Assembly: GCA_964403205.1 (NCBI GenBank)
Contig: CAYOER010000002.1
Location: 4,259 to 68,258 of the forward strand
Direction of reading: 5' to 3'
Origin: an uncultured Candidatus Saccharibacteria bacterium
GTDB lineage: Bacteria > Patescibacteriota > Minisyncoccia > Phycocordibacterales > PALSA-1337
Length of the DNA stretch: 64,000 bases
Part shown: positions 31,863 to 54,654 of the stretch, piece after piece
Numbering within the stretch: position 1 is the stretch's first letter
How the letters are laid out: each line of letters opens with the position of its first letter
Translations under genes and position numbers: made by a program
The notes under the pieces: model-generated
What the model was told of the DNA's origin: nothing
Database searches by the model: none
What the model saw: only the letters and a program-made list of their open reading frames with translations

Positions 31863-31875
31863 GATACTGTCCTCA

Positions 31876-34188: not shown

Positions 34189-34215
34189 CCATTAAAAATA
34201 AAATTCATTTCTTTA

Positions 34216-34569: not shown

Positions 34570-34573
34570 ATAC

Positions 34574-38666: not shown

Positions 38667-38893
38667 ACCAGTTTCCTGATATGACCATCCCTGATGAGCT
38701 GAACGCGGGGTTCAATATCAAGGATGGATTTCTATGCCATACCTCGCAGAAAAACTACGAGGGTTAGGCACGTATTTTATTTATAATGTTTTTACTTCAT
38801 AATAATTATGAATATCATCATAATATCGCCTTTTTGATATTTTTGCACGCAAGTGATTAATGGGTATAATATCGATATGAATTTAGTCATTAA

Positions 38894-39211: not shown

Positions 39212-39222
39212 TTCATAACCAT

Positions 39223-40120: not shown

Positions 40121-40391
40121 AATTATAATTTAAAGATAATAATTATCTTGTAAAGATAACACTATCATACCATACTTCATTCAATCAAGTCGTCTTTATT
40201 ACATAATTATATGTAGTTTAAAGTAACATCTTTTGTTTACTGTGACTTTCTATAGTGTACATCCTACACAAATACTATAAAATCCATAAAAAGCATCTAA
40301 ACGCTCTTACTATACCCTACCTATACGTTCTAACCTCGTTCAACATTCGGAGCAATTGACAAACTTAATAAAATATGCTATCATTAAAAAA

Positions 40392-40995: not shown

Positions 40996-41241
40996 GGTCG
41001 CCTCAAGATCCAAAAGGTATGCTGACTACCTTCTCATGTGAGAAATTGTCAGGCAAGTCACAGATATTCTGTGGCTTTTTTTATACCATTGAAACATATG
41101 CAAAGTCCTGATAAACTGTATTTCATTACTAATTACTGACCAGTTCACAGTTCGGAGCTCGTCCAACATGCGGAGCATAAAAAAGAAAAACTCCGTAGGG
41201 ACTGCCCTGCGAAGTTTTGTGAGTAGAACAAGAAGTCAGTA

Positions 41242-42579
41242 TTAACCGATGACTTTTTTGTCTCTAGCACATGCACCATGAGAGGTATATTTTACCTTTG
41301 ATCCAGTGCTTTCCTGAATGAGTCTATAGAGTTGGTCTTCAGTTGAGACCGATTTGATTTCAGGAATAGTTACATTCTCGAGCATTGTGGTTAGTTTCGA
41401 TTGATAGTCCAGATCACGTTTGTAATTTGGAATGAGACGACCAAAGGGTAGACCATCATGAAGATATTGATCAACATAGGGCAGAACTTTTCGATGTTGC
41501 AATATGTCAACATGTGTAACAGCTATTGAGTCAAGTCCTCCATGAGCACGCGTACATTCAGCAGCGTATTTTAGAAGGACTAGATCCAGTGCTCCTGAAC
41601 GAAAGCCGCCTTGCCAATCGTTCAATGTATTGTGTTCCTTAAGGCTCACTCCATACATCCCTACATCTTCAGTTGGAAATGGACCTGAACCATGCCTGGT
41701 CGTATAAGATCGTGTAATGCCTACTGTCTCAACTTCCCCATCAAAACAACATTCCCTGAGCAAGGAACGCGCATTTTCTGTCACGATCCTACTCCATGTC
41801 GTATATGGATGAAAACCCTGCCACTCATCCAGAAGAACTCCTTGTGCTCCCTCAAATACAGGTTTTGAAGATTGAACAAGATCTGCCACTTTCTTTTCGT
41901 TCAGAAATTGGTAATGCTTTGCCATAGATCTGTAGGCATCGACCAATTGATCAAGTTTTTCCGGACTGAAGATATTCAGTGACAATGCAATTGTTCTCGG
42001 GAGTTTTTCACCGAAATCTAATCCCAGCTCCGCAAGTTCATTGCGTTTCCTTTCAGAAATTACTTCGAGCATTGCTTTGAGTTTCCCTGCATTTGTAAGA
42101 TCAATTGCTTTGATGACTTCATCAGGATGATTGACAATATCAAACATTGTCTCACCAATTCCCTTTCCACATGAACCGTGTTTTTTTCCTCCTCGCATCC
42201 ACTCCCTTGCTTGATTTGTTGCAACATGGAATGGCGTAATAACTGGTGCACGTTCATCAATAAAATGACGATCCAGAGCGAAATGCTTGAGTTTAGGTGA
42301 CAAGCATGACGTCTCATGGGCCAGAGCTATCGGGTCCCAGAGCATGTATCTCGAAATAAGGGTTTTGACAAATGGAATGAATGTCCCGCTACCGAACTGT
42401 GAGAAGGTATGATGTAGCCCTTCATCAGTCACTACATTATGCGCTGCTTGAGATCCGCCATTATAACGTACTACAAGATCAGCATTACCGTGACGACAGA
42501 GGAAATCTGTCATAGTTCCCTTACCTTCATCACCAAAACCGAGTCCAACGATAATTCGAGCTTTTTTTGTGTTTTTCAT
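41242..42579 (-). CDS. Adenylosuccinate synthetase (PurA)-family protein, divergent in its substrate loops
   Basis: GLGFGDEGKGTMTDFL (P-loop GDEGKGK), GGSQAAHN (GGHNAGHT), SCGKGIGE (TTGRGIGP), FEGAQGVLLD (FEGAQGTLLD), HGSGPFPTE (VGAGPFPTE), THVDIL (TKLDVLD). The Asp-binding TTGRRRRTGW loop is replaced by QGGFRSG, and C-terminal STGP becomes SHGA. Confidence 0.7.
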   Translation of the reverse strand: MKNTKKARIIVGLGFGDEGKGTMTDFLCRHGNADLVVRYNGGSQAAHNVVTDEGLHHTFSQFGSGTFIPFVKTLISRYMLWDPIALAHETSCLSPKLKHFALDRHFIDERAPVITPFHVATNQAREWMRGGKKHGSCGKGIGETMFDIVNHPDEVIKAIDLTNAGKLKAMLEVISERKRNELAELGLDFGEKLPRTIALSLNIFSPEKLDQLVDAYRSMAKHYQFLNEKKVADLVQSSKPVFEGAQGVLLDEWQGFHPYTTWSRIVTENARSLLRECCFDGEVETVGITRSYTTRHGSGPFPTEDVGMYGVSLKEHNTLNDWQGGFRSGALDLVLLKYAAECTRAHGGLDSIAVTHVDILQHRKVLPYVDQYLHDGLPFGRLIPNYKRDLDYQSKLTTMLENVTIPEIKSVSTEDQLYRLIQESTGSKVKYTSHGACARDKKVIG

Positions 42580-42637
42580 AAAAAGAACCTAGCTACCTCT
42601 AGCTAGGTTCTACACTAAAACCTAATTTTTGTCAAGC

Positions 42638-43690
42638 TTAGTGTGTTGTGCGCTTTCTTCCTTTGCGACTGCCTGAGGATGTTGCGAGTGCGCCACCGGA
42701 AACTTTTCCGGCAACAATCGCTCCACGAGCAACAGGAACAAGTGCTTGTGTCGCAATCAGTGCAGCGGATACACCGCGGATTCCTTTGGACTTCAAAACA
42801 TCAGCCAAGTCATCCTCAGTTTCTCCTGCGAGCCGACCGATAGCAGCCGCCATGGTTGGAACAATGTCCGATGTTTCAGGAACCTCCAGAACGTACTCAG
42901 GATTTTCTCCTGCGTCCGACAGAAGTTTCTGCCACATTTTCTTGATGGACTTGTTCGTGCCATGATTGGTATGTCCAGGTCGAATAACGAAAACGTGATA
43001 CCGTTCGCACGTTTTCCGCACAGACTCGAGCATGGGAATTTCTGACTGAATTCTGTCCCCAAAGACTTCTTTGGCCAGTGCAGGGGTAGTCCCGTGTACT
43101 GCGGGATCTCCACTGTCGTAGAAAGGCTGTTCGTCCTCAATGAGGAAAAAGTAACCCTTTGCGCCGTCACGCTCGAATGATTCGATACGTGTATGATTGG
43201 CGGCAGCATAGAATGCAAGATGATATGCTTCGCCATTGTTTCCACCACCATTACCGGGGATGATCATTTCATTGAGTGCTGTGAGCAACTCTTTGGAGCC
43301 AATTTCAAACTGACTCATTTGGAATGCTGCATCCGGTGGGGTGGCGCGTTCATCGTCGAACATCATGAACATCACATTAGGGTGATCAGAGATCCCCTTT
43401 TCTGTGATCATGTCGATAAGTTTTGGTAACTGCTTTTGCATGTCGTGTGGAACATGCTCCATCGAACCAGTTCCGTCGAGGGCGACAATGATCGGTGTCG
43501 CATCGTTGAAACCGGGAGCGAAGCATGATTCCCTCATCCCGTTCTTGAGCTTGCGTGGGTCGAGGATATCGGCAATATTCCGAACGCCTGTCGACACAGC
43601 AGTCGCTGAACGACTGAAGGTTGAACCAGAACTTGCGAGCCCTCTTACGCCAGCATCGAAGTCCATTGAACTGAAGCCTGAATGTCCCAT
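42638..43690 (-). CDS. von Willebrand factor type A (vWA) domain protein with a C-terminal Ala/Gly-rich basic tail
   Basis: MIDAS motif IIVALDGTGSM. Rossmann-like alternation following it. The probable true start is MGHSGF at 43690. Confidence 0.6.
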   Translation of the reverse strand: MGHSGFSSMDFDAGVRGLASSGSTFSRSATAVSTGVRNIADILDPRKLKNGMRESCFAPGFNDATPIIVALDGTGSMEHVPHDMQKQLPKLIDMITEKGISDHPNVMFMMFDDERATPPDAAFQMSQFEIGSKELLTALNEMIIPGNGGGNNGEAYHLAFYAAANHTRIESFERDGAKGYFFLIEDEQPFYDSGDPAVHGTTPALAKEVFGDRIQSEIPMLESVRKTCERYHVFVIRPGHTNHGTNKSIKKMWQKLLSDAGENPEYVLEVPETSDIVPTMAAAIGRLAGETEDDLADVLKSKGIRGVSAALIATQALVPVARGAIVAGKVSGGALATSSGSRKGRKRTTH

Positions 43691-43720
43691 AGTGATTTTT
43701 TTCTCTTTGTGCCAAACCAC

Positions 43721-43876
43721 TTAGAGTTTGGCTGTTTTTGTTTCTTCCACCTGCTCAACAACAGGTTGAACAGATACGCCGGTTTCTGCGGTTTGTGTCT
43801 CTTTCTTGGTCTCATCCAATGTTTGTGCAACTTTGGAAGGACTTTCCGCCTCTGTCTCATCCACTGGTTTTCCCAT
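43721..43876 (-). CDS. Small acidic protein (51 aa) between the kinase-like and vWA genes
   Basis: Minus-strand MGKPVDETEAESPSKVAQTLDETKKETQTAETGVSVQPVVEQVEETKTAKL. Its stop abuts the vWA ORF. Confidence 0.25.
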   Translation of the reverse strand: MGKPVDETEAESPSKVAQTLDETKKETQTAETGVSVQPVVEQVEETKTAKL

Positions 43877-43907
43877 GATGTATCTTTCTTGTTTTGTTTG
43901 TTGTGGT

Positions 43908-45104
43908 TTAGGTCATTACAAGTTCGACAAATCTCTTTGGGCCGAAAACGGCTTTGGTTATCTGTCGAAATTCTGTGTAAACAGCATCAGCTGTCTGCGG
44001 TCTTCGAACACTTTTTGGTTGAAGACATCTATTGAGCAATTCCCTGATTGGCATTTCAACCGAGTCAGGAATGACTTTTTCTTCGGAACTTCCACCAAGT
44101 ATGTAAACCATGCACCACGCTGACATGTATATGTCAGACGCAGGAGATGGTAACATACTCGTGGATTTTAATTCCTCTGGAAAATAAGCTTGATACCTGT
44201 CATCAGTATAAGGAACTTTCTCACCACTACTTATCTTGCAAGAAGCAGTCCAATCTAGGATCTGTCCAAGATGGTCTTTTGCATGGATGAGAATATGATT
44301 TGGAGTAAGTGCACTGTGCACCACTCCCGAATAGTGAGCGAGGGTCAATCCCTCAAGAACTCTATTCCAAATAAATGTCATGTGTCGAGTAGACACACCA
44401 GAAGGATACGTCTTACGGATTTCCTCTAGTGTATACCACCCTTTATCAAAGCCTGGTTGTATGAGAAAAATATTTACTGTCTTTTTCCCAGAACCGTCAT
44501 CAATTCGAACTGACTCATGAAGTTCCGGCATGCGTAGTAAAAACTTACGTGCAGTTTCCTGACCAGCTGGATTGCTAGCCAAGGATTTTGCCTTCTTTCT
44601 GAAAAGGTCAAATGCTCGTGCCTCCCGCTCCATAAGGTCATTATCCTTGATTGAATGCGGTACCTTGAACAGTGCAGATGAAACAACAGATTTCTTGTCC
44701 TGAATAGTTCCCCTGAAAACACCGCATGTCCCACCGGAATAAATCCGATTGCCGACAGTATAGACATATTTGGGAGAACTAAACTGCACCAAGGCAGGAT
44801 CTTCAGTGGGCTTCGGTGACAATTCTGCTTTCTTGTCCCCGTATATTCCACCTTTGATTTTATCTTGGGCAGTATGCCAAAAAACGTTGAGAAGTCTCTG
44901 GGCCTCAGTTGTGTCCGCCACATCTTTGGGATTACCCATAAGACGGACCTTGTGTATGCACTTTGCCAGCCTACGGAACACTTTCTGGACTGCATGATAG
45001 ACCTTGTCAGAACTACCCTTTTCCAGTCCAAAAATATCTTCTGGATGATTCGCCTTCTTAAGGGCTTCGAGAAGTCTTTGTAATTCAGTCATAATTCCTT
45101 TCAA
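43908..45104 (-). CDS. Protein kinase-like (Ser/Thr kinase fold) protein with an atypical catalytic loop; possible pseudokinase
   Basis: Gly-rich loop SGGTCGVF. Beta3 Lys in SALFKVP. Catalytic-loop equivalent VVHSALTPNHILIH (HRD changed to HSA). ILDWTAS (DFG-like). YFPEE (APE-like). SDIYMSAWCMVYIL (subdomain IX). Confidence 0.5.
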   Translation of the reverse strand: MKGIMTELQRLLEALKKANHPEDIFGLEKGSSDKVYHAVQKVFRRLAKCIHKVRLMGNPKDVADTTEAQRLLNVFWHTAQDKIKGGIYGDKKAELSPKPTEDPALVQFSSPKYVYTVGNRIYSGGTCGVFRGTIQDKKSVVSSALFKVPHSIKDNDLMEREARAFDLFRKKAKSLASNPAGQETARKFLLRMPELHESVRIDDGSGKKTVNIFLIQPGFDKGWYTLEEIRKTYPSGVSTRHMTFIWNRVLEGLTLAHYSGVVHSALTPNHILIHAKDHLGQILDWTASCKISSGEKVPYTDDRYQAYFPEELKSTSMLPSPASDIYMSAWCMVYILGGSSEEKVIPDSVEMPIRELLNRCLQPKSVRRPQTADAVYTEFRQITKAVFGPKRFVELVMT

Positions 45105-45317
45105 AGATCATTGTGTTTAATTACTATAAATCACATTACATTAAAAAATACTTTTGTCAAGCAGTTCGTAATGCAAGGTAAAAATGAAACCAAACTAATC
45201 TAATTACAGTATATAATTAACTCGTATATAGTGTCAATAGTACAATATTACAAAAAACATAATAAATGGCATGTCAATATTTCCCAGACACACCAGTAGG
45301 AATAGTTCCTAAGAAAA

Positions 45318-45962: not shown

Positions 45963-46091
45963 TGTGTATAATATACACGATATATAACAAAAGTAAAGAT
46001 TTAATAGCACACGCCTACTTTGTTGCAATTAGAATGCTAATTCACTGCGAGCAAGTTGACAACTACTATTTTATATGATAGTTTTAAATTA

Positions 46092-46110
46092 GCATAGTTT
46101 TTTGATATTT
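46092..46110 (+). promoter_or_regulatory. Conserved promoter module (copy 2): gcatagttttttgatattt
   Basis: See 40392..40410. Confidence 0.35.
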
Positions 46111-46195
46111 CCTCTTGTTTGACCGTATCTTTTAGATCTTTTACGAGTTTTGAAAGATGCGGTTATAACGAACAACACTCAATTCAAAAGAGAAT

Positions 46196-46531
46196 ATGCC
46201 AACACAAATAACTGAAATCATCCCCGCAGGTAAGAAACGTTTAATTAACACCTTAACCGAAGCAGGTCTGACAACACTGGAAGCTTGTGCGCAAGCTGGA
46301 CCAGAAAAACTCCTAAAGTATAGGGGTTTGGGACACAAAACCTTGATTGCACTGAAAGAGCACTGCTTCAAACGCGGTATCAAATGGTCAGATAGCCATT
46401 CAAGGATTCACAAGCTGTCCATCCACTTCATGAGCCGTTACAAGCTAAGTCCCAAAGATGCAAAACTGGTAGCAACTGCATTTTACTGGGATAACGCATA
46501 TCCGACTTCCCTCCTTCATCCCATGTTTTAA
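46196..46531 (+). CDS. Small helix-hairpin-helix-like protein (111 aa)
   Basis: GKKRLINTLTEAGLTTLEACAQAGPEKLLKYRGLGHKTLIALKEH is an HhH-like pattern. Followed by the conserved terminator module. Confidence 0.3.
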   Translation: MPTQITEIIPAGKKRLINTLTEAGLTTLEACAQAGPEKLLKYRGLGHKTLIALKEHCFKRGIKWSDSHSRIHKLSIHFMSRYKLSPKDAKLVATAFYWDNAYPTSLLHPMF

Positions 46532-46546
46532 GAGACTGGAACAATC

Positions 46547-46598
46547 CCCGCCCGAACAGGAGAAACCCTCCGTTCGCTGGCGGGTTTTTCTTTTTTCT
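46547..46598 (+). terminator. Conserved terminator module, copy 1 of 6 (ccccgcccgaacaggagaaaccctccgttcgctggcgggtttttctttttt)
   Basis: Stem cccgcccgaac/gttcg(ct)ggcggg with a 2-nt bulge, followed by a T-run. The core tcgctggcgggttttt recurs at 47352-47408, 47954-48001, 52835-52884, 53465-53518 and 54229-54265. Confidence 0.6.
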
Positions 46599-46613
46599 TA
46601 ATCCTATAACCAA

Positions 46614-46629
46614 GCCCTGGTCGCGGAGC
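46614..46629 (+). repeat. Direct repeat of the tRNA-Asn 3' end (gccctggtcgcggagc); att-like junction 1
   Basis: 16/16 identical to 21580-21595. Embedded in the 35-bp unit ttcttaatcctataaccaagccctggtcgcggagc, which recurs at 47046-47079 and 47406-47442. Confidence 0.7.
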
Positions 46630-46710
46630 TTGATAAGAAAAAGTATTCTTTAGGGTGTCTTCTTTCTTATCACTATTTCTATATTTGACAATCTCTCTGA
46701 AGATAGTACG

Positions 46711-46971
46711 ATGATTCCAGATCACCACAAACCTGAAAGAATTCTTATGATAACTGAAGTAAGCAAAAGAACACTCAGAGGATACAGACAGACATGTCGT
46801 GTCAAAATCAAGATCAGCAACAAAATTGAGATCGCACGCTTGATATTCGCTCATCAACAATCTGGGGGACTGAATAATGTACCTATTGGGGATAGAGTGT
46901 ATCTCGAACCATTGGGATGGTTCAATACTGATGATGTCGAACTACTCGAAGTTCTGACTTGGGATGATTGA
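46711..46971 (+). CDS. Small hypothetical protein (86 aa)
   Basis: ORF only. TTGACA-containing promoter-like sequence upstream. Confidence 0.2.
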   Translation: MIPDHHKPERILMITEVSKRTLRGYRQTCRVKIKISNKIEIARLIFAHQQSGGLNNVPIGDRVYLEPLGWFNTDDVELLEVLTWDD

Positions 46972-47064
46972 GTCAAGACCATGAATTATCAGTAATCTCT
47001 ATTTAAGCACATAGCGCACGACCCTCGGGTACGGCGTTTTCTTTTTTCTAAATTCCGTGACCAT

Positions 47065-47079
47065 GCCCTGGTTGTAGAC
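47065..47079 (+). repeat. Degenerate copy of the tRNA-Asn 3'-end repeat (gccctggttgtagac); att-like junction 2
   Basis: Same 35-bp context (ttctaaattccgtgaccatgccctgg...) but the last 7 nt diverge. Confidence 0.45.
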
Positions 47080-47166
47080 TGAATTGACACTCCTTAATCA
47101 ATGTGTTAGTTTATTTATAGAACCAGATGAGAATCTGACAACTGTTCCAAACAAAAAAAATTAACC

Positions 47167-47337
47167 ATGAACGCAACTACGATTCCTGAAGATGTAACAA
47201 ACACGCCTGCAGGTCCAAATAATAACGGATTCATTGTGCTCGACATATTCGCTTCATCCATTGTTGGATCAGACGGCGAATGCTATACGCGTAAAAACGG
47301 AATAGTGACCATCGCCTCCGAAGAAGACGAACACTAA
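47167..47337 (+). CDS. Small hypothetical protein (56 aa)
   Basis: MNATTIPEDVTNTPAGPNNNGFIVLDIFASSIVGSDGECYTRKNGIVTIASEEDEH. Followed by terminator module copy 2. Confidence 0.2.
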   Translation: MNATTIPEDVTNTPAGPNNNGFIVLDIFASSIVGSDGECYTRKNGIVTIASEEDEH

Positions 47338-47351
47338 TGGATTCAATCACA

Positions 47352-47408
47352 CCCGCCCGAACACGAGAGCCCTAGGGCTTTCAGTTCGCTGGCGGGTTTT
47401 TCTTTTTC
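47352..47408 (+). terminator. Conserved terminator module, copy 2
   Basis: cccgcccgaacacgagagccctagggctttcagttcgctggcgggtttttctttttct. Confidence 0.55.
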
Positions 47409-47425
47409 TAAATTCTATAACCAAT

Positions 47426-47442
47426 CCCTGGTCGCGGAGCAA
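47426..47442 (+). repeat. Direct repeat of the tRNA-Asn 3' end (ccctggtcgcggagcaa); att-like junction 3
   Basis: 17/17 identical to 21582-21598. Confidence 0.7.
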
Positions 47443-47481
47443 TACTTGACACTAAACATATTCCGTGCTACCATGCTGGTA

Positions 47482-47500
47482 TAGTAGTTTTTTGACATGT
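47482..47500 (+). promoter_or_regulatory. Conserved promoter module (copy 3): tagtagttttttgacatgt
   Basis: See 40392..40410. Confidence 0.4.
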
Positions 47501-47585
47501 ATGTTGGTAGTTAGCTGTATCCCCTAGGACATTATTGTGTCTTGTGGGATACGGCCAACTAGAGGCCACGAAAAAACATCAAACT

Positions 47586-47948
47586 ATGAATAAACAATTC
47601 GTTCCACTTCACCACATTGACGCACTCTCTTATGGCCAATGGGATTTCACTCTCGAGCCATTTCGAGATTGGCTGCAGATTCAAAAACACATCGGGGTTA
47701 AAGTTCTAATTCTTCCGACCCCAAAAAGCAAGGAAGAGCAATTCAATCTAGGTATGGTAAGCCACGATATCCGCAAGGAAGCTGAGAAGTTCGCCTTGGT
47801 TGTGGTTTCCGAAGCAAGATTGCGTCATGCTGGTATTCTGAAAACAAAACCAGCCGTAGTTGTCGATGCTAAACCAATTCTGTTTCCAAGTCCATTTTTA
47901 GTTTTAGTTGTGGATGCGGATAAAAACGAACTCAGTATCACTAACTAA
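47586..47948 (+). CDS. Hypothetical protein (start taken at MNKQFVPL)
   Basis: ORF followed by terminator module copy 3. Confidence 0.3.
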   Translation: MNKQFVPLHHIDALSYGQWDFTLEPFRDWLQIQKHIGVKVLILPTPKSKEEQFNLGMVSHDIRKEAEKFALVVVSEARLRHAGILKTKPAVVVDAKPILFPSPFLVLVVDADKNELSITN

Positions 47949-47953
47949 CCACA

Positions 47954-48001
47954 CCCGTCCGAACAGGAGAAACCCTCCGTTCGCTGGCGGGTTTCTTTTT
48001 T
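47954..48001 (+). terminator. Conserved terminator module, copy 3
   Basis: cccgtccgaacaggagaaaccctccgttcgctggcgggtttctttttt. Confidence 0.55.
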
Positions 48002-48091
48002 AATACAAACCATTGACATATTCACATACTTACTTTAAACTCCATAAAAGTAAACCGTGCTGAGTAATAGTCAGCAAAACAACTAAATAAT

Positions 48092-48268
48092 ATGAACGAT
48101 AAACAAGTGGAGGAATTGAGAGCAAGCATCAATTTCCTTCATGAACACATCTGTCTTTTGGAAACTTGGGTTCAGCGAGGAGACACTCATCCTGGACTCC
48201 AAGATTGTGCGCAGAATATCAGACTTCAGTTTGAAGAAATCATGCGCAAGCTTCCACCTAAAAAGTGA
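48092..48268 (+). CDS. Small coiled-coil protein (58 aa, below the ORF-track cutoff)
   Basis: MNDKQVEELRASINFLHEHICLLETWVQRGDTHPGLQDCAQNIRLQFEEIMRKLPPKK. Confidence 0.2.
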   Translation: MNDKQVEELRASINFLHEHICLLETWVQRGDTHPGLQDCAQNIRLQFEEIMRKLPPKK

Positions 48269-48365
48269 TGGTTTTCCATACAACCACTTCATTACGAGAG
48301 TTCTGAGGTGGTTTTCTTATTTTCTAAATAATCAACAACCAATCAAATTATGATATACTAAAACC

Positions 48366-48572
48366 ATGCAAAAAATAGCCACTCGCGTATTTATATATTC
48401 ATCAATCGCCTTCGGTATCATCGGGCTACTTATTGTCTTTACTAGCTCTGGACCAGACCATATGGACACACCGTGGGATCAGACACTCGCCAAGCTTTTG
48501 TTTACTTGCGTCTTTATCATACTCCCATCTTTTGCACTCAGTATTGCTAGTAAATATTTGAGGGAAAAATAA
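48366..48572 (+). CDS. Small two-TM membrane protein (68 aa); a truncated duplicate ORF lies at 50069..50176
   Basis: MQKIATRVFIYSSIAFGIIGLLIVFTSSGPDHM... The second copy, MQRIATRVFIYSSIAFGIIGLLIVFTSSGPDHMSF*, ends prematurely. Confidence 0.35.
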   Translation: MQKIATRVFIYSSIAFGIIGLLIVFTSSGPDHMDTPWDQTLAKLLFTCVFIILPSFALSIASKYLREK

Positions 48573-48586
48573 TACAATATTATATT

Positions 48587-49189
48587 ATGAAAAAAACATT
48601 AACTATTATTTTTATTATTTTACTTATAGCGACTTTTGGTATTGTCTGGAAATTTTCAAAAAATGAAGTACAGAAACCTATTATAAGCAGTGATGAACTA
48701 GATAAAACAGATTTGATTCAATTAGACTCTCCCCGTCCTAATCAGATCATCACAAGTCCACTAATTATAAAGGGTAAGGCAAGAGGAACTTGGTTCTTCG
48801 AAGCTAGTTTCCCAATAGACCTAGTGGATTGGGATGGTAGGATAATAGCCCAAGGTATAGCTTCAGCGAAAAGTGATTGGATGACAGAAGACTTCGTCCC
48901 ATTTGAAGCAAGTCTGGATTTTACAATTGATAAAGATGTATACAGTTATAGAGGAGCACTCATTCTTCATAGAGATAATCCTTCTGGTCTACCAGAGAAT
49001 GATGACGCATTGGAGATTCCAATAGAATTTGCCAAGATCATTACATCCCCCACGATGTGCACAGCAGATGCGAAACTCTGTCCCGATGGATCCGCAGTAG
49101 GTCGTATCGGTCCCAACTGTGAGTTCGCACAGTGTCCAAACACCGACAATGGAGGAGGTGGATCAGGAATTGTACCCTTTAAATATTGA
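48587..49189 (+). CDS. Secreted/membrane-anchored protein with a Cys-rich C-terminus
   Basis: N-terminal TM/signal. CTADAKLCPDGSAVGRIGPNCEFAQCPN. Confidence 0.3.
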   Translation: MKKTLTIIFIILLIATFGIVWKFSKNEVQKPIISSDELDKTDLIQLDSPRPNQIITSPLIIKGKARGTWFFEASFPIDLVDWDGRIIAQGIASAKSDWMTEDFVPFEASLDFTIDKDVYSYRGALILHRDNPSGLPENDDALEIPIEFAKIITSPTMCTADAKLCPDGSAVGRIGPNCEFAQCPNTDNGGGGSGIVPFKY

Positions 49190-49274
49190 TTTGTCTTGTG
49201 ATACAGGGATTAGATAATTATATTTTAGATACACTTATTTATTAGAACTTTCATATGATAAATGATATTATATT

Positions 49275-50033
49275 ATGATGAAGAAAATAATTATTTTTGT
49301 TTCAGTTTTAATAATTTTAGTTGCGAGTTATTTATTTTTTAAACAAAATAAATCTATTGGTGGTAATTTTGGTTTAAGTGGTTGTGTAATTGAAGAGAAT
49401 CGTGGAGAAACAGTACCTGTTGACATTGCTCAAGCCGTTGCTCAAAGAAATGTTATTAACAATAACAAACCATATAATTGGGTGCCAGTTGGTTACTATC
49501 CCGTTTATAATAGCTCTGATTCAATTAATTATTATGCATTTGTTTTTAGAAAATCTGATTATTCAAAATTCACGACGTTGGATAGTTTAGAGCAAAATGC
49601 TAGTAATTATTCTGACGGCGATAATAAATACCAATTTAATGATATAGCTTCTGTCTGGACAGGAGCATCTAACGGACAGAAATTGCTAATGCGTCATTAT
49701 CGCGGTATTCCAGAAATTGTTGCTGAAAAGATGAAAATCAAGAATTTTATCAATGATAAGTACCAAGATAAAACTATTGGTAATATTATTGCTGATTCTG
49801 AAGCTGGTAAGATGTATTTTGATATTGTTAATAAATCAGGTGGTAAATCGACTGGTAATATTATAGGTCTTGATTATTCAATAGTTTCAAAGAAAGAGCT
49901 AATTAATAATCAGGAGAAAATAGAAGAAAAACGATATGCTGGTTTAAGTGGTGATAGATGCGACAAAATGAAACGAGCTATACTAGAAAGAGACACTGAT
50001 TTTATGAGACAGTGGAGTGAAGCTGGTAATTAA
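49275..50033 (+). CDS. Membrane-anchored hypothetical protein (252 aa)
   Basis: N-terminal TM helix. No motifs recognised. Confidence 0.3.
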   Translation: MMKKIIIFVSVLIILVASYLFFKQNKSIGGNFGLSGCVIEENRGETVPVDIAQAVAQRNVINNNKPYNWVPVGYYPVYNSSDSINYYAFVFRKSDYSKFTTLDSLEQNASNYSDGDNKYQFNDIASVWTGASNGQKLLMRHYRGIPEIVAEKMKIKNFINDKYQDKTIGNIIADSEAGKMYFDIVNKSGGKSTGNIIGLDYSIVSKKELINNQEKIEEKRYAGLSGDRCDKMKRAILERDTDFMRQWSEAGN

Positions 50034-50058
50034 AATAGATAATACTCCGTTTATGCTA

Positions 50059-50167
50059 TACTAAAACCATGCAAAGAATAGCTACACGCGTATTTATATA
50101 TTCATCAATCGCCTTTGGTATTATCGGACTGCTTATTGTTTTTACGAGTTCTGGACCGGACCATATG
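50059..50167 (+). repeat. About 109-bp direct duplication (about 90% identical) of 48356..48464
   Basis: tactaaaaccatgcaaagaatagctacacgcgtatttatatattcatcaatcgcctttggtattatcggactgcttattgtttttacgagttctggaccggaccatatg compared with the copy at 48356. Confidence 0.8.
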
Positions 50168-50305
50168 TCATTTTGAGATTCCAATAAAATTTGCCAGATC
50201 ACCACTGTAATAAATCACTAGCTAATACGGCAATATAATATGTCAAACTATAAATGACATTGAGTTGGTCTATTTTATTAACATTATAATCAAATAATAA
50301 AAATT

Positions 50306-50590
50306 ATGTCTTCATCATTATTCAAAGCTGATATTTTTTTCTTCATATCTTCTATAGCAACGATCGTATTTACAATCTTGACTTCTATTCTATTGATATA
50401 TCTCATCAAAGCTGGGAGAAATCTATACAAACTTTCAGAAACTCTGAAGAGTAGCTATAGCGATTCGGAAGAATTCATCGGAGAACTCAAGGAACGTCTA
50501 GAAAACAATATGGTATTCCGAATGTTCTTTCCTCCCCTCCGCAAAAGACGAATATCAAAATCAAATGATGATAGTACAAAAAATAATTAA
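50306..50590 (+). CDS. Small membrane protein (94 aa)
   Basis: One N-terminal TM helix. Confidence 0.3.
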   Translation: MSSSLFKADIFFFISSIATIVFTILTSILLIYLIKAGRNLYKLSETLKSSYSDSEEFIGELKERLENNMVFRMFFPPLRKRRISKSNDDSTKNN

Positions 50591-50616
50591 TTATTAGCAT
50601 TTAATAACAAAAGTAA

Positions 50617-50958
50617 ATGAAAAATAAAATAATAAAAAAGAGCTCTGGCACAGCAAAATATGTTGCAATCGGTGCTAGCATCGCTGGTATAGCGGCTGCA
50701 TATTTCTTCCTCGGCCCAAAAGGTAAAATAAATCAGAGAAAGACAAAGGCTTGGGCGATAAAAATGAAAGCAGATGTTGTAGAGAAACTCGAAGAAGTTC
50801 GTGATATGAGCGAACCTGTATATCATCAGATCATTGACACTATAGCAAAGGAATATGAGGAGAAGAAAAAAGTTGGCCGTGAAGAAATCCAATCATTGGC
50901 GATGGATTTGAAAAAACATTGGAAGACGATCAGTAAAGAGATTGGGATTGGGAAGTAA
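50617..50958 (+). CDS. YtxH-like (DUF948) membrane-anchored stress protein
   Basis: N-terminal TM helix followed by a charged helical region (KADVVEKLEEVRDMSEPVYHQIIDTIAKEYEEKKK). Confidence 0.35.
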   Translation: MKNKIIKKSSGTAKYVAIGASIAGIAAAYFFLGPKGKINQRKTKAWAIKMKADVVEKLEEVRDMSEPVYHQIIDTIAKEYEEKKKVGREEIQSLAMDLKKHWKTISKEIGIGK

Positions 50959-50979
50959 TATAGGATATAATTTATCCTT

Positions 50980-51924
50980 ATGAAATCATACAGAATAAAT
51001 TCGTTTAATAGCATATTAATCATATTATTAATACTCGGCTTTGGTTATTATTATGAAAAAGCAGAAATTGATTATGCTTTTTCATCATTATTAAATAAAA
51101 TACAACCTTGTAAAAGACCAATAACATATTCTATTGGAGAACTAGATACACGTTTCGGTCTAACAGAAACAGAAGTATTAAATGAAATAAAAAAGGCAGA
51201 AAAAATATGGGAATCTTCAATTGATAAACAATTATTCGAATATTCACCTACAGGAAAATTGAAGATAAACTTTATTTATGATTATAGACAGAGAGCGACA
51301 AATGCTATGGAAGATGTGGGTATAGTGATCGATGATAATAAATCTAATTATGATGTATTGAAAGCAAAACGTGATTCACTTATCATTTCATATAATAAAG
51401 AGAAAGCAAAAATTGAGTCTTTAATAAAAGATTATACTGCAAATAAAAGTATTTATGAGAAAAGCGTTAGTAATTGGAATAATCAAAAAAGAGGGAGTGA
51501 AGAACAATATAATATATTGGAAAAAGAAAGAATTGCTTTGAATAATAAGGCTAAAGCGATAACAGAAGCAGAGAGATCTATTAATCAATTAGCTGAAGCA
51601 ATAAATTCAACTGGAATAATTCTCAATAAATTAATTGTCACATTGAATCTTAATGTAGAAAAATACAATACAATAGGAGCGAGTACAGGTGAGAAATTCG
51701 ACGAAGGAGAATATATAAGCGACTCCAGTGGAGCAACAATTAATATTTTCCAATACGATAGTGCCAATAGACTCTTGAGAGTTCTGGCTCATGAATTTGG
51801 ACATGCACTCGGGCTAGGACATATAGATAATACAAAAGCTATAATGTATTATCTGAATGAGGGTATGAATGATGAATTGACAATAGATGATATAAATGCC
51901 CTAAAAGAGGTGTGTAAAATATAA
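50980..51924 (+). CDS. Membrane-anchored metzincin (matrixin/M10-like) zinc metalloprotease
   Basis: HEFGHALGLGHIDNTKAIMY: HExxHxxGxxH plus a Met-turn. A long coiled-coil linker precedes it. Confidence 0.6.
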   Translation: MKSYRINSFNSILIILLILGFGYYYEKAEIDYAFSSLLNKIQPCKRPITYSIGELDTRFGLTETEVLNEIKKAEKIWESSIDKQLFEYSPTGKLKINFIYDYRQRATNAMEDVGIVIDDNKSNYDVLKAKRDSLIISYNKEKAKIESLIKDYTANKSIYEKSVSNWNNQKRGSEEQYNILEKERIALNNKAKAITEAERSINQLAEAINSTGIILNKLIVTLNLNVEKYNTIGASTGEKFDEGEYISDSSGATINIFQYDSANRLLRVLAHEFGHALGLGHIDNTKAIMYYLNEGMNDELTIDDINALKEVCKI

Positions 51925-52064
51925 TAGATAAATATCTTTATAAATAAGTAATTACATGATCATTGACACAGGCAATAAACTGTGATATCTTCTAATAAAT
52001 AGCACAGAGTAGGAATCAGTAGACCTGCTCAGAAAACAAAAAACAATCAAAAAGAAGACTGATT

Positions 52065-52823
52065 ATGTATAATCAAAAGTTAGCTTTTGTAACCGGTGCA
52101 ACATCTGGTATCGGCAGAGCAATAGTCATCGAACTGATTCAGATGGACTATCATGTTGTAGCAATAGGTAGAGACGATAACCGGTTGAGAGAATTGAAGG
52201 AGATGTTTCGACCAGAAGTCATCGCTACCATCAAGGTTGATGTATGCGACTTTGAAACTCTCGATAAGATTATCAGGGCACAGAATATCTACTTTGATCT
52301 AGTTGTCCATTCGGCCGGTATTCTAAGAATCGGGTCACTGGATAATACTACAAGAGAAGATGCATGGATCTGCATGGAGACGAATTATCATGGTACTGTA
52401 AATGTTATAACAGCTCTGCGACATCATATCAAGACTGGAGGACATATTGCAGTTGTGAGTTCAATCGGATGTTTGACTGTTCTTCCTGGAGGCTTCGCCT
52501 CTTATGCATCCTCAAAAAGTGCAATCGCAACTTTCTGTGAGCATATCCGAGATGAACTCAGGATGAAAGGCATTCGTCTCACTGTAGTCTATCCATCGAT
52601 TATCGCTACACCAATGATCAAAAACATTGAAAGTACTTTGCCACCTGTCTACAGAGCCTTCGGATGGCACAGTGCTGAACATGAAGCAAGGCAGATCATT
52701 AGTGACACTTTGAGAGGAAGGAAGACCTCCTTTACAACCTTCTCTGATCGTCTACTGTCTATGATTGCCAATTTGGCACCGAGAACATTCAGAGGGATCC
52801 TGACTTGGTGGATTAACCGATAG
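52065..52823 (+). CDS. Short-chain dehydrogenase/reductase (SDR)
   Basis: VTGATSGIGRAIV (TGxxxGIG), YASSKSA (YxxxK). Confidence 0.8.
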   Translation: MYNQKLAFVTGATSGIGRAIVIELIQMDYHVVAIGRDDNRLRELKEMFRPEVIATIKVDVCDFETLDKIIRAQNIYFDLVVHSAGILRIGSLDNTTREDAWICMETNYHGTVNVITALRHHIKTGGHIAVVSSIGCLTVLPGGFASYASSKSAIATFCEHIRDELRMKGIRLTVVYPSIIATPMIKNIESTLPPVYRAFGWHSAEHEARQIISDTLRGRKTSFTTFSDRLLSMIANLAPRTFRGILTWWINR

Positions 52824-52834
52824 CGATTAGTAAC

Positions 52835-52884
52835 CTGCCCGAACATGAACCCCCCAGCCTCACATTCGCTGGCGGGTTTTTTTT
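52835..52884 (+). terminator. Conserved terminator module, copy 4 (subtype 2: aaccccccagcctcacattcgctggcgggtttt)
   Basis: 34 bp nearly identical to 54228-54261. Confidence 0.5.
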
Positions 52885-52969
52885 ATATTAAATTACTCAT
52901 ATTTATTTCCTTGTCTTTCTCCATATTTTGCAGTAATATTCAAATCAGAACAAGAGAAAGAACCTGACT

Positions 52970-53449
52970 ATGAAAAACCGAATGGTTAATGCAGTAGCGG
53001 TTTATTTGATTTTACGACGTCTTGACGGTGATATTCTGATTATGAGACGTTTCAATACAGGTTATATGGATGGTATGTATCATCCATGTTCTGGACATGT
53101 CGAAATGAGAGAACTTCCAACCGAAGCCATGATCCGTGAAGCCAAAGAAGAAATCGGAATTGTACTTAAAAGAGAAGATCTCGCGCTCATTCATATATCT
53201 GCTCGTCCTAAGCATGATGAGACAGGTAATCGTATCGATATGTTCTATCTAGCCACACGCTGGCGAGGAAGACCAAAAATCATGGAGTCAGATAAATGTG
53301 ACGATATGAGATGGTCGTCACCTGATAATTTACCAGAGAATTTTGTCCCTCATATGGCACATTGTATTGCATTGAGTAGAAATGGGATACTATGTTCAGA
53401 GTTTGATCTGACATGGATTAAATCTCATACTGTTTACGAGATCAAGTAA
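52970..53449 (+). CDS. NUDIX hydrolase
   Basis: Canonical Nudix box GHVEMRELPTEAMIREAKEEIGI. Confidence 0.75.
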   Translation: MKNRMVNAVAVYLILRRLDGDILIMRRFNTGYMDGMYHPCSGHVEMRELPTEAMIREAKEEIGIVLKREDLALIHISARPKHDETGNRIDMFYLATRWRGRPKIMESDKCDDMRWSSPDNLPENFVPHMAHCIALSRNGILCSEFDLTWIKSHTVYEIK

Positions 53450-53464
53450 ACACCAGCAGATACC

Positions 53465-53518
53465 CACCCCAAACTCGAAAGCCCACTAGCCCATAGTCCG
53501 CTGGCGGGTTTTTCTTTT
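53465..53518 (+). terminator. Conserved terminator module, copy 5 (variant)
   Basis: ...gtccgctggcgggtttttctttt. Confidence 0.45.
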
Positions 53519-53621
53519 ATTCAAATTAGACTTCTATAATTCCCTCGCTGTTCTTGATTTTTACCCATAAAGTATGTAATATCATAAAAGAACAGAAACA
53601 AAGTCAAGGAAAGGTAAAACC

Positions 53622-54200
53622 ATGACACCATTCGTTAGATTACAAACTGCAATCATTAGCATTCTCTTCAAGCTACATAGATATCATCCTGAAGAATTAA
53701 AAAGGCTTGCAAGTGTATACTGTGAGCAAAATCCAAAAGATCTCCATATAACAGATTGGGCATTGTTATATTATCATGGAATCTTGCCATATAGTGCAAA
53801 TGATTGGCCAGAAACTGGATCATTCTTAAAGATATGCGGAGAAATCCTGCATGATCAGATCGATAATACGAGTGAAAATGGAATCACCATCAGGAATCTA
53901 CTCGGTACAGCATTGTCTAACACTTCCCCGATAGACTACAAGACATTCATCTATGATCGTGGTAGTGGTAACAATCGATTGAGAACACACTACTTTTCTC
54001 AGCCACGAGTTCTCAAAAAAGGTGATGTGTTATCAACTGGTGACCGTCTATTATCACCACCTCGTGAAGGTGGAAATGGTTCAGTCCTTCTCCATCTGAC
54101 AGGTGGCATTGATGGACATTGGATATCAATACCGGCACGCTTACCTATCGCTCTTCTGGTCGAAGAACTTCATGCACCACCAAACTTAGTCGAGAAGTAA
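53622..54200 (+). CDS. Hypothetical protein (192 aa)
   Basis: ORF followed by terminator copy 6. Confidence 0.3.
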   Translation: MTPFVRLQTAIISILFKLHRYHPEELKRLASVYCEQNPKDLHITDWALLYYHGILPYSANDWPETGSFLKICGEILHDQIDNTSENGITIRNLLGTALSNTSPIDYKTFIYDRGSGNNRLRTHYFSQPRVLKKGDVLSTGDRLLSPPREGGNGSVLLHLTGGIDGHWISIPARLPIALLVEELHAPPNLVEK

Positions 54201-54228
54201 TACTTGATCAATTATCGACAAAAACCCC

Positions 54229-54265
54229 CAGCCTCACATTCGCTGGCGGGTTTTTCTTTTGTCTG
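54229..54265 (+). terminator. Conserved terminator module, copy 6 (subtype 2)
   Basis: acccccagcctcacattcgctggcgggtttttctttt. Confidence 0.5.
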
Positions 54266-54654
54266 ATTCCCCTATTTCAAATTCAATTTGATTTTTATCT
54301 ATTTGACACATTATATATAAGGTGTTACTATATACGGTAGAAAACATCCACATCGGATCCTTATAAATACCCTCTTACAAGCATATCCCAAGATCAGACT
54401 CTTCACCTGAACCGGAATGCAAAAGTATTAGGGGTTGGACGACAACGGTCCTATATAAGGTAAAAAGTCTTATTGGAGGTACGAGCTATATATTATATCA
54501 GCGCTCTACACCTTTATAAGGTTACAGTTGTACACGCCCCTCGAGGACAATACGGTCCTCGGGGGTTTTCTATTACCCTACATATACCAAAAACACCGTA
54601 CAATTTTCATTGTACTGTGTCTCAGATCCGAGATAGTAATTTAATTAAAAATTA

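Follow-up and report, generated by a model that had tools for sequence, protein, structure and literature searches.

The small genes between 40 and 54.6 kb of the window (the whole 64-kb stretch of DNA analyzed here) probably represent the far end of a series of units that inserted site-specifically, one behind another, at the 3′ end of a chromosomal tRNA-Asn(GUU) gene (tandem accretion). Nearest the tRNA would lie a ~19-kb integrative element, E1, whose recombinase gene overlaps the tRNA, and beyond it self-expressed mini-cassettes. These measure 0.36-0.8 kb and each carries one small, usually orphan ORF. Because the units have their own promoter and terminator and many are separated by copies of the tRNA-Asn end, the array has the appearance of many tiny site-specific insertions stacked together. 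The original prediction, which was confined to a cassette-like array at 46082-54265, overlooked the tRNA-Asn 3′-end boundaries, the recombinase 25 kb upstream, and the ~19-kb element.

Table 1. Coordinates of the tRNA anchor, E1, junctions, and cassettes in the window
Feature	Position	Strand	Parts and description	Basis
tRNA-Asn(GUU)	21521..21594	+	Anchor and attL side	ARAGORN; Rfam tRNA
Large serine recombinase	21555..23288	-	577 aa	Pfam Resolvase + Recombinase
E1	21595..40326		Integrative element, ~18.7 kb	Pfam; L068/L071 backbone; L074 empty site
J0	40327..40354	+	28-nt tRNA-like junction ending CGGAGCA	PWM 35.7 bits; L074/L075 alignment
C1	40355..41149	+	Promoter 40356-40384; leader motif 40392-40408 + hairpin; 159-aa ORF 40516-40995; terminator 41055-41077	Homologues in L074, L075
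J1	41150..41177	+	28-nt second junction, C1 right boundary	PWM 39.8 bits; alignment
Minus-strand operon	41179..45240	-	Higher GC; divergent adenylosuccinate synthetase 41242-42579 (-); 360-aa phrog_2971 protein; 51-aa ORF; protein-kinase-like gene 43908-45104	Pfam; PHROGs; PADLOC; PDB sequence search; GC profile
C2	46056..46630	+	Promoter 46056-46084; leader motif 46090-46108 + hairpin; 111-aa HhH-like ORF 46196-46531; terminator module 46545-46596; spacer D4-1 with tRNA-Asn 3′-end copy 46614-46630	Hairpin fold; covariance model; tRNA repeat
C3	46631..47080	+	Promoter 46685-46712; 74/86-aa ORF ending 46971; non-canonical terminator 47013-47040; degenerate spacer D4-2 47051-47080	Repeat family D4; promoter scan
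C4	47081..47441	+	361 nt; promoter at 47084; 56-aa ORF 47167-47337; terminator module 47350-47408; spacer D4-3 with tRNA-Asn 3′-end copy 47425-47441	Hairpin fold; covariance model; tRNA repeat
C5	47442..48003	+	Promoter 47446-47474; leader motif 47482-47498 + hairpin; ORF 47586-47948; terminator module 47952-48003	Hairpin fold; covariance model; promoter scan
C6	48004..48345	+	Promoter 48013-48041; 58-aa ORF 48092-48268; terminator 48282-48323	Promoter scan; hairpin fold
C7	51951..52888	+	Promoter 51963-51991; SDR gene 52065-52823; terminator module 52832-52888	Promoter scan; hairpin fold; covariance model
C8	52889..53520	+	NUDIX hydrolase 52970-53449; terminator module 53462-53520; degenerate D4-like stretch ~53520-53560 after	Hairpin fold; covariance model
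C9	53521..54262	+	192-aa ORF 53622-54200; 5′-truncated terminator module 54223-54262	Hairpin fold; covariance model
Last unit	54303..54572	+	Promoter 54303-54331; terminator 54538-54572; no convincing ORF between

A tRNA-Asn anchor and a large serine recombinase

The tRNA-Asn gene lies in a neighborhood of conserved synteny (priA, def-fmt, hpf, and yggU, by Pfam on the neighboring genes) that is common to contigs L015, L020, L038, L065, and L067. The stop codon of the 577-aa large serine recombinase, the only recombinase found in the window, falls within this tRNA gene. The recombinase has >2000 homologues, the named ones mostly from Patescibacteria MAGs, and those that are ~70% identical in L067 and L071-L073 likewise overlap tRNA-Asn, showing that the recombinase family is specific for this target. 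E1, whose backbone is also found in L068 and L071, occupies the interval between tRNA-Asn and the cassettes. It encodes the recombinase, a 516-aa ORF, a MarR-like protein, an AAA_25 helicase, an FtsK-like translocase, two DNA methylases (one fused to ParB-N), a type III R-M system, and a LOOT RNA. The array starts at the 3′ end of a tRNA gene and the recombinase adjoins attL, as in tandem site-specific integrative elements at tRNA/tmRNA genes.

In L074, we found the corresponding empty site, with a homologue of cassette C1 directly after tRNA-Asn and no recombinase element. Cassettes also begin immediately after tRNA-Asn in L028 and L065, whereas L020 and L038 have them downstream of this tRNA; in-silico removal of the group I introns allowed tRNA-Asn to be recovered. 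No recombinase was seen alongside the arrays in L020, L028, L038, L065, L075, and L076.

A conserved terminator module follows six genes

A search for TCGCTGGCGGGTTTTT with up to two mismatches returned six matches in the 64-kb window, against 0.02 expected, all on the plus strand (46574, 47386, 47981, 52866, 53498, and 54240) and confined to 46.5-54.3 kb. With its filters off, a covariance model built from 32 modules recovered the same six sites (27-72 bits), with no other hit above 15 bits in the 64 kb. Each site lies 0-20 nt past a stop codon, on the strand of its gene. Folding the repeats, a check proposed with the original prediction, gave at every one of the six a hairpin (-16 to -30 kcal/mol) with a T-run behind it. 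Motif search, covariance model, and folds therefore agree on the predicted conserved terminator behind six genes, with the reservation that these are six sites rather than six full copies, since the one at 54223-54262 is missing its 5′ arm and pairs internally in an alternative way. The ORFs of 86 aa (C3) and 58 aa (C6) have distinct terminators of their own rather than the conserved module.

The consensus consists of AACCCGCCCGAAC, a variable stem-loop, GTTCG, CT, GGCGGG, and a U-run, and forms a strong bulged hairpin. A G+C-rich hairpin with an immediate U-run, placed after the stop codon and co-oriented with the gene, is the arrangement of an intrinsic terminator, and to judge from the sequence the conserved hairpin probably acts as a transcription terminator and insulator. 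The suggestion that the motif might be the ordinary terminator of the genome did not hold. It is not the general terminator of the host, being absent elsewhere in the 64 kb, and the ~50-nt module is present in ~35 other Patescibacteria contigs behind unrelated small ORFs, although part of this apparent conservation reflects ascertainment, because the searches held the sequence of the 3′ arm fixed. The ORFs that bear the module elsewhere have a GC of 0.38-0.55 regardless of host GC (0.27-0.65), and additional diverged copies occur at the same loci on the same strand. Most of the genes that bear the module elsewhere have no recognizable junction of the kind described below.

Promoters, leader, and cargo of the array

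A promoter scan identified sigma-70-type promoters (TTGACA-N16-17-TAnnnT) in most units; those of C2, C4, C8, and C9 were read by eye from the sequence. Several cassettes also share a leader motif, AGTTTTTTGAYAT, with a long hairpin. This motif had been described as a promoter module preceding three genes. There are two good copies, at 40392 (beyond the predicted array) and 47482, and a degenerate one at 46090, and since the motif lies downstream of the -10 box, it marks the start of the transcript or leader rather than the promoter.

All modules are on the plus strand, as predicted, but the array is interrupted at 48.35-51.95 kb by 3.6 kb of host-like low GC with six genes and no modules. The first array ends with C6, which abuts a host gene for a 68-aa membrane protein; homologues of this gene also come right after cassettes in L029 and L038. 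The 3′ end of C6 retains a D4-type left arm without a tRNA repeat. A partial duplication (48348 and 50051) lies near the array. A homologue search with the 111-aa ORF of C2 found nothing besides itself, and the 192-aa ORF of C9 belongs to a family of 147 cluster representatives. The last unit has a predicted fold z-score of -3.68 and may encode a ~240-nt non-coding RNA.

Junctions copied from the tRNA 3′ end bound the cassettes

The exact last 16-17 nt of the tRNA-Asn gene in the window are repeated in two inter-cassette spacers, D4-1 and D4-3 (0 expected). A PWM of the J-type junction, built solely from other contigs, matched the window at J0 and J1 only, with a shuffle maximum of 16.2 bits; J0 serves both as the attR of E1 and as the left boundary of C1. 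The window junctions are copies of the tRNA-Asn 3′ end, and in the first array such direct repeats of the target's 3′ end delimit the units. About half of the units (C1-C4) are followed by a short junction that derives from tRNA-Asn and ends in CGGAGCA, and J0 precedes C1. These junctions lie 5-53 nt past the hairpin and directly before the promoter of the next unit. No clear junction was found for C5-C9, and the second array (52-54.6 kb) has no recognizable tRNA repeats. The presence of two junction types in one array suggests more than one crossover point or enzyme.

The same junctions occur in L007, L028, L034, L058, L074, and L076; L038 has them on both sides of one cassette and L075 has three copies. 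Module and junction are therefore spread across Patescibacteria.

Evidence for discrete units came from comparisons among genomes. Homologues of the 159-aa ORF of C1 are present in L074 (62% amino acid identity) and L075 (80%), in the latter inside a different cassette array, between other cassettes. In an alignment of the three loci, C1 homology stops exactly at the GGAGCA core on both sides, so that C1 keeps the same two ends in each of three contexts. The related genomes provide both an empty site and an alternative occupancy. A protein search with the C9 cargo led to the homologue P0125 in an array in L076 that is built alike, sharing both the hairpin and the TTCGAAC...GGAGCA junction architecture, and that was ascertained independently of the module. 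The variability expected of cassettes is thus seen in the context of C1 but not within the species, where contigs that are 99-100% identical showed no cassette gain or loss and no excised or circular form. In L015, one cassette separates priA from def; it is not next to the tRNA and has no junction. This location, together with the lack of junctions at most modules elsewhere and in the second array, indicates that some cassettes spread by other routes.

Possible mobilization of the cassettes

Under the accretion model, cassettes would enter and leave by recombination at the tRNA-derived junctions, and the serine recombinase, our candidate for the mobilizing enzyme, would act in trans on the junctions of the mini-cassettes. 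Alternatively, cassettes could be co-excised with E1 via a more distal junction, which would transfer them between hosts. Conservation of the hairpin would then reflect common descent of all cassettes from a single mobile pool rather than a role as the recombination site. Large serine recombinases normally require att sites of ~40-50 bp and leave only 2 bp of identity; the 16-28-nt repeats differ from such sites, which counts against accretion. The two junction types, the many modules that lack a junction, the arrays with no recombinase beside them, and the absence of gain or loss within the species also count against it.

Alternative explanations

The region could instead be the early or "moron" region of a prophage remnant or plasmid. 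The conserved promoters and terminators would then be regulatory signals that belong to a single phage or plasmid family, the cassettes would move only through natural transformation and general or illegitimate recombination, and the tRNA repeats would be relics of old whole-element integrations rather than cassette boundaries. The organization of each gene as promoter, ORF, and terminator, with atypical GC, fits this explanation, as do the matches of the adjoining minus-strand operon to phage protein families, the L015 cassette, and the many modules without a junction. Nevertheless, we consider it unlikely, if well short of negligible. Neither module nor junctions had a match in IMG/VR (2.9 million contigs) or in INPHARED, and no structural phage genes were found. 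C1 homology ends precisely at the junction core in three genomes, and junctions stand at every cassette boundary in L075, L076, and L028. Decay of large elements would hardly produce such boundary junctions, as the left ends of those elements are recombinase genes, not promoters.

A selfish palindrome of the REP/MITE type (RAYT/IS200-type) or a DNA-uptake signal would also account for an imperfect palindrome with a conserved base and variable top that is extragenic at gene 3′ ends and common to distant lineages considered naturally competent. We think this very improbable, because strict copies number 1-2 per representative genome, with six clustered in the window, rather than hundreds dispersed; because they always share the orientation of the gene before them and precede a U-run; and because the hairpin travels with a specific promoter, leader, and junction. 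No RAYT, Y1, or IS200-like gene was found in the window either.

An integron or CALIN-type array, in which the hairpins would be attC-like single-strand sites for a distant integron integrase, seems slightly less credible still. The one-strand arrangement, the unrelated small cargo, and an imperfect palindrome at each 3′ end, with an unpaired CT bulge and internal AAC...GTT, do resemble one. However, in agreement with the original prediction, Pfam found no IntI-type tyrosine recombinase (Phage_integrase) among ~70 window ORFs, including all of at least 250 aa, nor is there a canonical attC: the AAC/GTT lies inside the G+C clamp before the U-run and not at the element ends, sequence is conserved and not structure alone, and the boundary repeat is a separate, tRNA-like junction past the hairpin. 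The hairpin spans 44-58 nt, versus a palindrome of 57-141 nt for attC, and an Rfam scan found no family matching the module. The cassette-like character of the units stands insofar as they are discrete and self-contained, are conserved at both ends (5′ and 3′), and carry unrelated genes; the hairpin is not attC-like, and every cassette has its own promoter. Least probable of all is local tandem duplication with gene conversion in one genome, without mobility, for which the near-identical module pairs 46545/47952 and 52832/54223 and the nearby partial duplication could be cited but which does not explain module, junction, and leader in dozens of unrelated contigs with different cargo.

Comparison with known systems

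Phage morons are extra genes with their own promoter and factor-independent terminator and atypical composition, inserted between two genes (the Hendrix/Juhala concept). The L015 cassette between priA and def is moron-like. Unlike morons, the window cassettes are not in phage genomes (no IMG/VR match), are arrayed, and are bounded by tRNA-derived repeats.

Like integron and CALIN arrays, the cassette array is unidirectional, consists of small, unrelated, often orphan single-gene units with a recurrent recombination-associated repeat, and may be integrase-less. Integron cassettes are typically promoterless and expressed from a common Pc, whereas those in the window carry promoters and terminators. 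There is no IntI, attI, or attC, the repeat is a mimic of a tRNA 3′ end, and the candidate enzyme is a serine, not a tyrosine, recombinase. Since IntI and attC are lacking and the cassettes have promoters, the array is integron-like in logic but is not an integron.

SCCmec, pseudo-SCC composite islands, and CIMEs form by accretion with a large serine recombinase. They resemble the window in that insertion targets an essential gene at its 3′ end, that short direct repeats mark off the members of tandem composites, and that some elements have no recombinase gene. Their scale, however, is kilobases to tens of kilobases rather than less than 1 kb, their target is rlmH/orfX rather than a tRNA, and they lack a common promoter/terminator framing.

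The closest precedent is the ssrA-specific genomic islands of Dehalococcoides (McMurdie et al. 2011, PMC3146451), where a comparison with CcrB was also made. These islands lie in tandem downstream of a single-copy small-RNA gene and are bounded by ssrA or a ~20-bp direct repeat of its 3′ end, with a conserved short motif just upstream of each repeat. A ~540-aa serine recombinase on the reverse strand adjoins attL, the integration module includes ParB-domain and methylase-type genes, and some units that lack an integrase were proposed to have joined by accretion as cis-mobilizable elements (PMC3146451). The target in the window is tRNA-Asn rather than tmRNA and the host belongs to the Patescibacteria; the integrase-less units are single genes of 0.36-0.8 kb rather than multi-kb islands and, unlike those islands, follow one plan of promoter, leader, and terminator that is conserved across classes.

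Junctions between the cassettes are copies of the tRNA-Asn 3' end

We found a 47-nt repeat (family D4) downstream of three terminators in the window. Two of its three copies contain CCCTGGTCGCGGAGC(A), which is exactly the last 16-17 nt of the window tRNA-Asn(GUU), with 0 occurrences expected; the third copy is degenerate. The original prediction left the spacers out of account and missed these tRNA-Asn-derived repeats between cassettes. A second, J-type junction of 28 nt (GTTCnGAAC...CGGAGCA) resembles the tRNA segment from the T-loop to the 3' end, and it directly precedes cassette promoters at seven loci on other contigs (L007, L028, L058, L038, L034, L075, and L076). A PWM for this type, built from outside sequences only with the window excluded, gave exactly two window matches, J0 (35.7 bits) and J1 (39.8 bits), against a shuffle maximum of 16.2, and the two flank the 159-aa ORF of cassette C1. 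In IMG/VR, the sole match to either junction type was L079, where a coding region of 61% GC matched by chance. Two other identities were rejected for the junction: that of a dif/Xer site, as dyad symmetry is absent, and that of a mere promoter part, as J1, the L038 downstream copy, and the L074 copy have no promoter after them.

A conserved ~150-nt element lies between the tRNA-Asn (or junction) and the first cassette promoter at L065:5243-5400 and in L034 (minus strand, ~5100-4950). The element, which a spurious "ORF" common to L012, L034, and L065 brought to light, terminates in a second tRNA 3'-end copy and could be a structured RNA or a pseudo-tRNA.

The array is anchored at tRNA-Asn beside a serine recombinase

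Our comparisons show that the array is anchored at a tRNA-Asn gene adjoining a tRNA-Asn-specific serine recombinase. The neighbourhood of the tRNA is conserved (priA, def-fmt, hpf, and yggU), and no other recombinase was found among the ~70 window ORFs scanned, including all those of at least 250 aa. The recombinase family has >2000 members, the named ones mostly from Patescibacteria MAGs; a scan of IMG/VR for it was negative. Homologues of ~70% identity overlap tRNA-Asn likewise in L067 and L071-L073, and these loci have a backbone in common (a Prim-Pol/AAA_25 helicase, a ParB-methylase, and ORFs of 129 and 525 aa), which argues that window 21.6-40.3 kb is an integrative element, E1. Further genes of E1 encode an FtsK-like translocase and a type III R-M system. 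A full-length LOOT RNA (RF03000; 84 bits vs. a gathering score of 46) is also located within E1, a short way upstream of the methylase gene of that system.

Cassettes also start at this tRNA elsewhere. The L028 cassette starts at the tRNA-Asn 3' end (tRNA...GGAGCT/aatgTTGACA), that of L074 begins directly at the same end, and L065 has a perfect 21-nt repeat of the tRNA-Asn end followed by TTGAC; cassettes are found downstream of tRNA-Asn in L020 and L038 as well. Group I introns occupy the anticodon loop of tRNA-Asn(GUU) at four Patescibacteria loci, L020:3457-3814, L028:567-798, L038:8738-9003(-), and L065:4881-5195, and in-silico splicing at CUGU/...G/UAA restored tRNA-Asn(GUU) at the three loci tested (L020, L028, and L065). 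The window tRNA-Asn is intronless.

Between J1 and the host NrtR gene lies a higher-GC operon that encodes a divergent adenylosuccinate synthetase (phrog_1211), a 360-aa phrog_2971 protein for which a PDB relative was not found, a 51-aa ORF, and a protein-kinase-like protein (phrog_3043) with weak MkoA/PD-T4-6 matches. This operon may be a phage-derived or defence-related module.

Coordinates of features in the window
Feature	Position	Strand	Remarks
tRNA-Asn(GUU)	21521-21594		
Large serine recombinase, 577 aa	21555-23288	Opposite to tRNA-Asn	Resolvase + Recombinase domains; stop codon within tRNA
MarR-like protein of E1, 129 aa	25120-25509		
LOOT RNA	38650-38770	-	
J-type junctions J0, J1	40327, 41150		
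Leader motif, good copies	40392, 47482		
Leader motif, degenerate copy	46090		
159-aa ORF of C1	40516-40995		
Higher-GC operon	41242-45104	-	
Matches to 16-mer TCGCTGGCGGGTTTTT	46574, 47386, 47981, 52866, 53498, 54240	+	Motif search, <=2 mismatches
Last module copy	54223-54262		
Higher-GC segments (0.40-0.50)	40.4-45.2, 46.1-48.3, 52.0-54.6 kb		GC profile
Block without modules	48.35-51.95 kb		
117-nt direct repeat	48348-48464, 50051-50167		
Further repeat pair	49010-49034, 50172-50196		
Mismatch patch, Gmad2-domain gene	48713-48868		
Mismatch patch, M10-peptidase-like gene	51264-51624		
Promoter-terminator unit	54303-54572		

One cassette occurs in several contexts

C1 has homologues in L074 (62% amino acid identity) and L075 (80%). 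In L074, the homologue stands immediately after tRNA-Asn in the same hpf-yggU synteny, without the recombinase element; this locus is an empty site for E1. In L075, the homologue is part of an array: the gene before it ends in the canonical module, and a 135-aa cassette of another kind comes after it. In all three genomes, the left homology begins at GGAGCA, beyond which lies E1, the tRNA, or another cassette, and the right homology stops just past the junction GGAGCA, where the sequences become unrelated. Boundaries that stay at GGAGCA in three contexts are the hallmark of a discrete unit. Independently of the DNA motifs, a protein search led to a homologue of the 192-aa cargo protein (53% identity) that is likewise in a multi-gene array. 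Each gene of this array has a CCCGCC...GGCGGG-U hairpin at its end and a TTCGAAC...GGAGCA junction behind the hairpin; the same array also holds a canonical J-type junction. We conclude that the array is made up of tandem units delimited by tRNA-Asn-derived repeats, with an occupancy that differs among related genomes.

No cassette gain or loss was seen within the species, contigs from four other samples being 100% identical over both arrays (one reaching to ~48.3 kb, the second at 52-54.6 kb). Over 13 kb, the window and the same-species contigs are 100% identical save for two dense patches with 12 mismatches in 156 nt and 49 in 361 nt, which have the look of recombination tracts or of hypervariable stretches of secreted proteins. 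DGRs are common in CPR genomes; one was considered here and rejected, as neither an RT nor a template/variable repeat pair was seen.

The terminator module

The predicted six-copy terminator motif is real. The 16-mer TCGCTGGCGGGTTTTT matched six times in the window against 0.02 expected, and a covariance model built from 32 copies of the module, in the window and elsewhere, and run with filters off over the whole 64 kb, recovered exactly the same six plus-strand sites at 27-72 bits, with no further match >15 bits. In the predicted folds, all copies give strong hairpins with a U-run behind them, at -16 to -30 kcal/mol and z-scores of -2.7 to -4.9. A complete module reads AACCCGCC-CGAAC-(variable stem-loop)-GTTCG-CT-GGCGGG-UUUUUCUUUU; the bulged CT is invariant, and the apical stem varies in sequence with its pairing kept; the last copy has lost the 5' arm and has an alternative internal pairing instead.

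A stop codon on the gene's strand lies only a few nucleotides before the start of each copy. The hairpin has the orientation of its gene in every case, stands right against the stop codon, and runs into a stretch of U's; it is best read as a terminator plus insulator. Its distance to the junction ranges from 5 to 53 nt, which is hard to reconcile with a fixed recombinase site. Conservation of the lower stem and the CT bulge exceeds what termination requires. The 3' arm was prescribed in both our scan of per-species genomes and that of metagenomes, so its conservation, and that of its pairing partner, is in part an ascertainment effect. No constraint was placed on the AA prefix, the unpaired A's, or the UUUCUYUUUUAUAUA tail.

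Leader and array layout

What had been predicted as a promoter module is a real conserved sequence that was misnamed, since it is located after the -10 box. The region, AGTTTTTTGAYAT, is present in two good copies and one degenerate copy, and its position downstream of the -10 of consensus-like TTGACA-17-TAnnnT promoters places it at the transcript 5' end; we refer to it as the leader. It is followed by a 23-bp hairpin in which 13 pairs stay paired despite two-sided changes, even between non-homologous cassettes.

The window belongs to a low-GC (~0.31) Patescibacteria (CPR) genome from groundwater. The array of module-bearing small genes on the plus strand is interrupted by a 3.6-kb block of host-like GC with six genes without modules. 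Its cargo is mixed, comprising ORFs of 74/86, 56, 120, and 58 aa, an SDR, a NUDIX hydrolase, an orphan HhH-like protein of 111 aa whose sole database match is itself, and the 192-aa protein, a member of a modest family. PADLOC gave only generic kinase and NUDIX matches on the window.

A 117-nt direct repeat of 90% identity is accompanied by a further repeat pair; its second copy is a truncated duplicate of a 68-aa membrane-protein gene fused to a Gmad2 gene fragment, and the repeat is a remnant of local duplication followed by deletion. At the array end, a stretch of ~240 nt that lacks a convincing ORF lies between a consensus promoter (TTGACA-17-TACTAT) and a strong terminator; it may be a small RNA gene (predicted fold z-score, -3.68).

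The module beyond this genome

A strict 22-mer scan over one genome per species returned 16 loci, ten of them in Patescibacteria (Saccharibacteria, Paceibacteria, and others) with the complete module, including the 5' arm, at one or two copies per genome; ~23 additional loci came from a metagenome scan. The ORFs upstream are 31-252 aa long, all but one of at least 52 aa, and are mutually unrelated except for one three-member family. Their GC is 0.38-0.55 whether the surrounding DNA has a GC of 0.27 or 0.65, which fits a shared, horizontally moving pool. Several loci have diverged module copies nearby on the same strand. The module is not the host's ordinary terminator, nor is it confined to this genome. 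It is clustered in six copies in the window and found behind unrelated ORFs in other Patescibacteria.

The module had no match in IMG/VR or INPHARED, and 40.3-48.3 kb had no blastn match among 50,697 phage records. At the gathering threshold, Rfam found only the LOOT RNA and tRNA-Asn in the window, and at E<=1 it found nothing for the module at three loci. In tblastn, window proteins had no cargo in common with the first 16 loci, and searches of the literature for the motif string, as well as for palindromic terminators or integrons in CPR, brought up nothing of relevance. A DNA-uptake sequence was rejected as the identity of the module because the per-genome copy number is too low. An IS30-like insertion (HTH_38 transposase) adjoins a cassette at L058 ~880-1900 and L057:849-1829; the likeness of its terminal inverted repeats (AATCCGAACACTC) to the module's 5' arm is probably coincidental.

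Discussion

The cassette units would have arrived through site-specific recombination at the tRNA-derived junctions. E1 may gather distal cassettes by excising from a farther junction (accretion and co-excision), thereby spreading them, and the small units themselves could be cis-mobilizable. Our tentative proposal, which we consider possible but rather doubtful, is a so far undescribed Patescibacteria gene-capture platform that would work like an integron with a different build. Single-gene cassettes, each equipped with a promoter, a leader, and a terminator, would enter and leave singly at the tRNA-Asn-derived core (…CGGAGCA) through a tRNA-Asn-specific large serine recombinase acting in trans, with the conserved bulged hairpin and the junction jointly as the cassette-borne attachment site and a cassette pool common to classes of this radiation. 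Against recombination at the junctions stand the lack of cassette gain or loss within the species, the presence of two junction types, and the many modules elsewhere, as well as the second array, that have no junctions; moreover, serine recombinases have no need for long sequence identities. The suggested likeness to integrons holds in part for the logic; the array is not an integron, as no IntI was found among the ~70 window ORFs scanned, attC is absent, and each cassette has a promoter of its own.

Gene flow and mobile elements are poorly charted in the candidate phyla radiation, a group with tiny genomes in which recognisable integrases are few and orphan genes many. An array of sub-kilobase, ready-to-express cassettes with tRNA-derived repeats and with regulatory ends common to distant lineages would explain a trade in small accessory genes in CPR, and the terminator module, junction, and leader would serve as three portable markers by which to find this gene pool in metagenomic data. 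Should the serine recombinase prove to move single cassettes, the system would represent a second, independently evolved solution to the integron problem and a compact natural "landing pad plus expression cassette" design.

By analogy, the nearest described system is the ssrA islands of Dehalococcoides. These are tandem and bounded by 20-bp repeats of the tmRNA 3' end; at attL, a serine recombinase of ~540 aa is encoded on the reverse strand, every repeat has a conserved motif upstream, and the units that lack an integrase were taken to be cis-mobilizable elements (PMC3146451). The cassette array also resembles SCC composite islands and phage morons in part. Compared with the ssrA islands, the Patescibacteria host group and the tRNA-Asn target are new here, as is a unit pared down to one self-expressed gene in a promoter-leader-terminator-junction frame conserved across classes.
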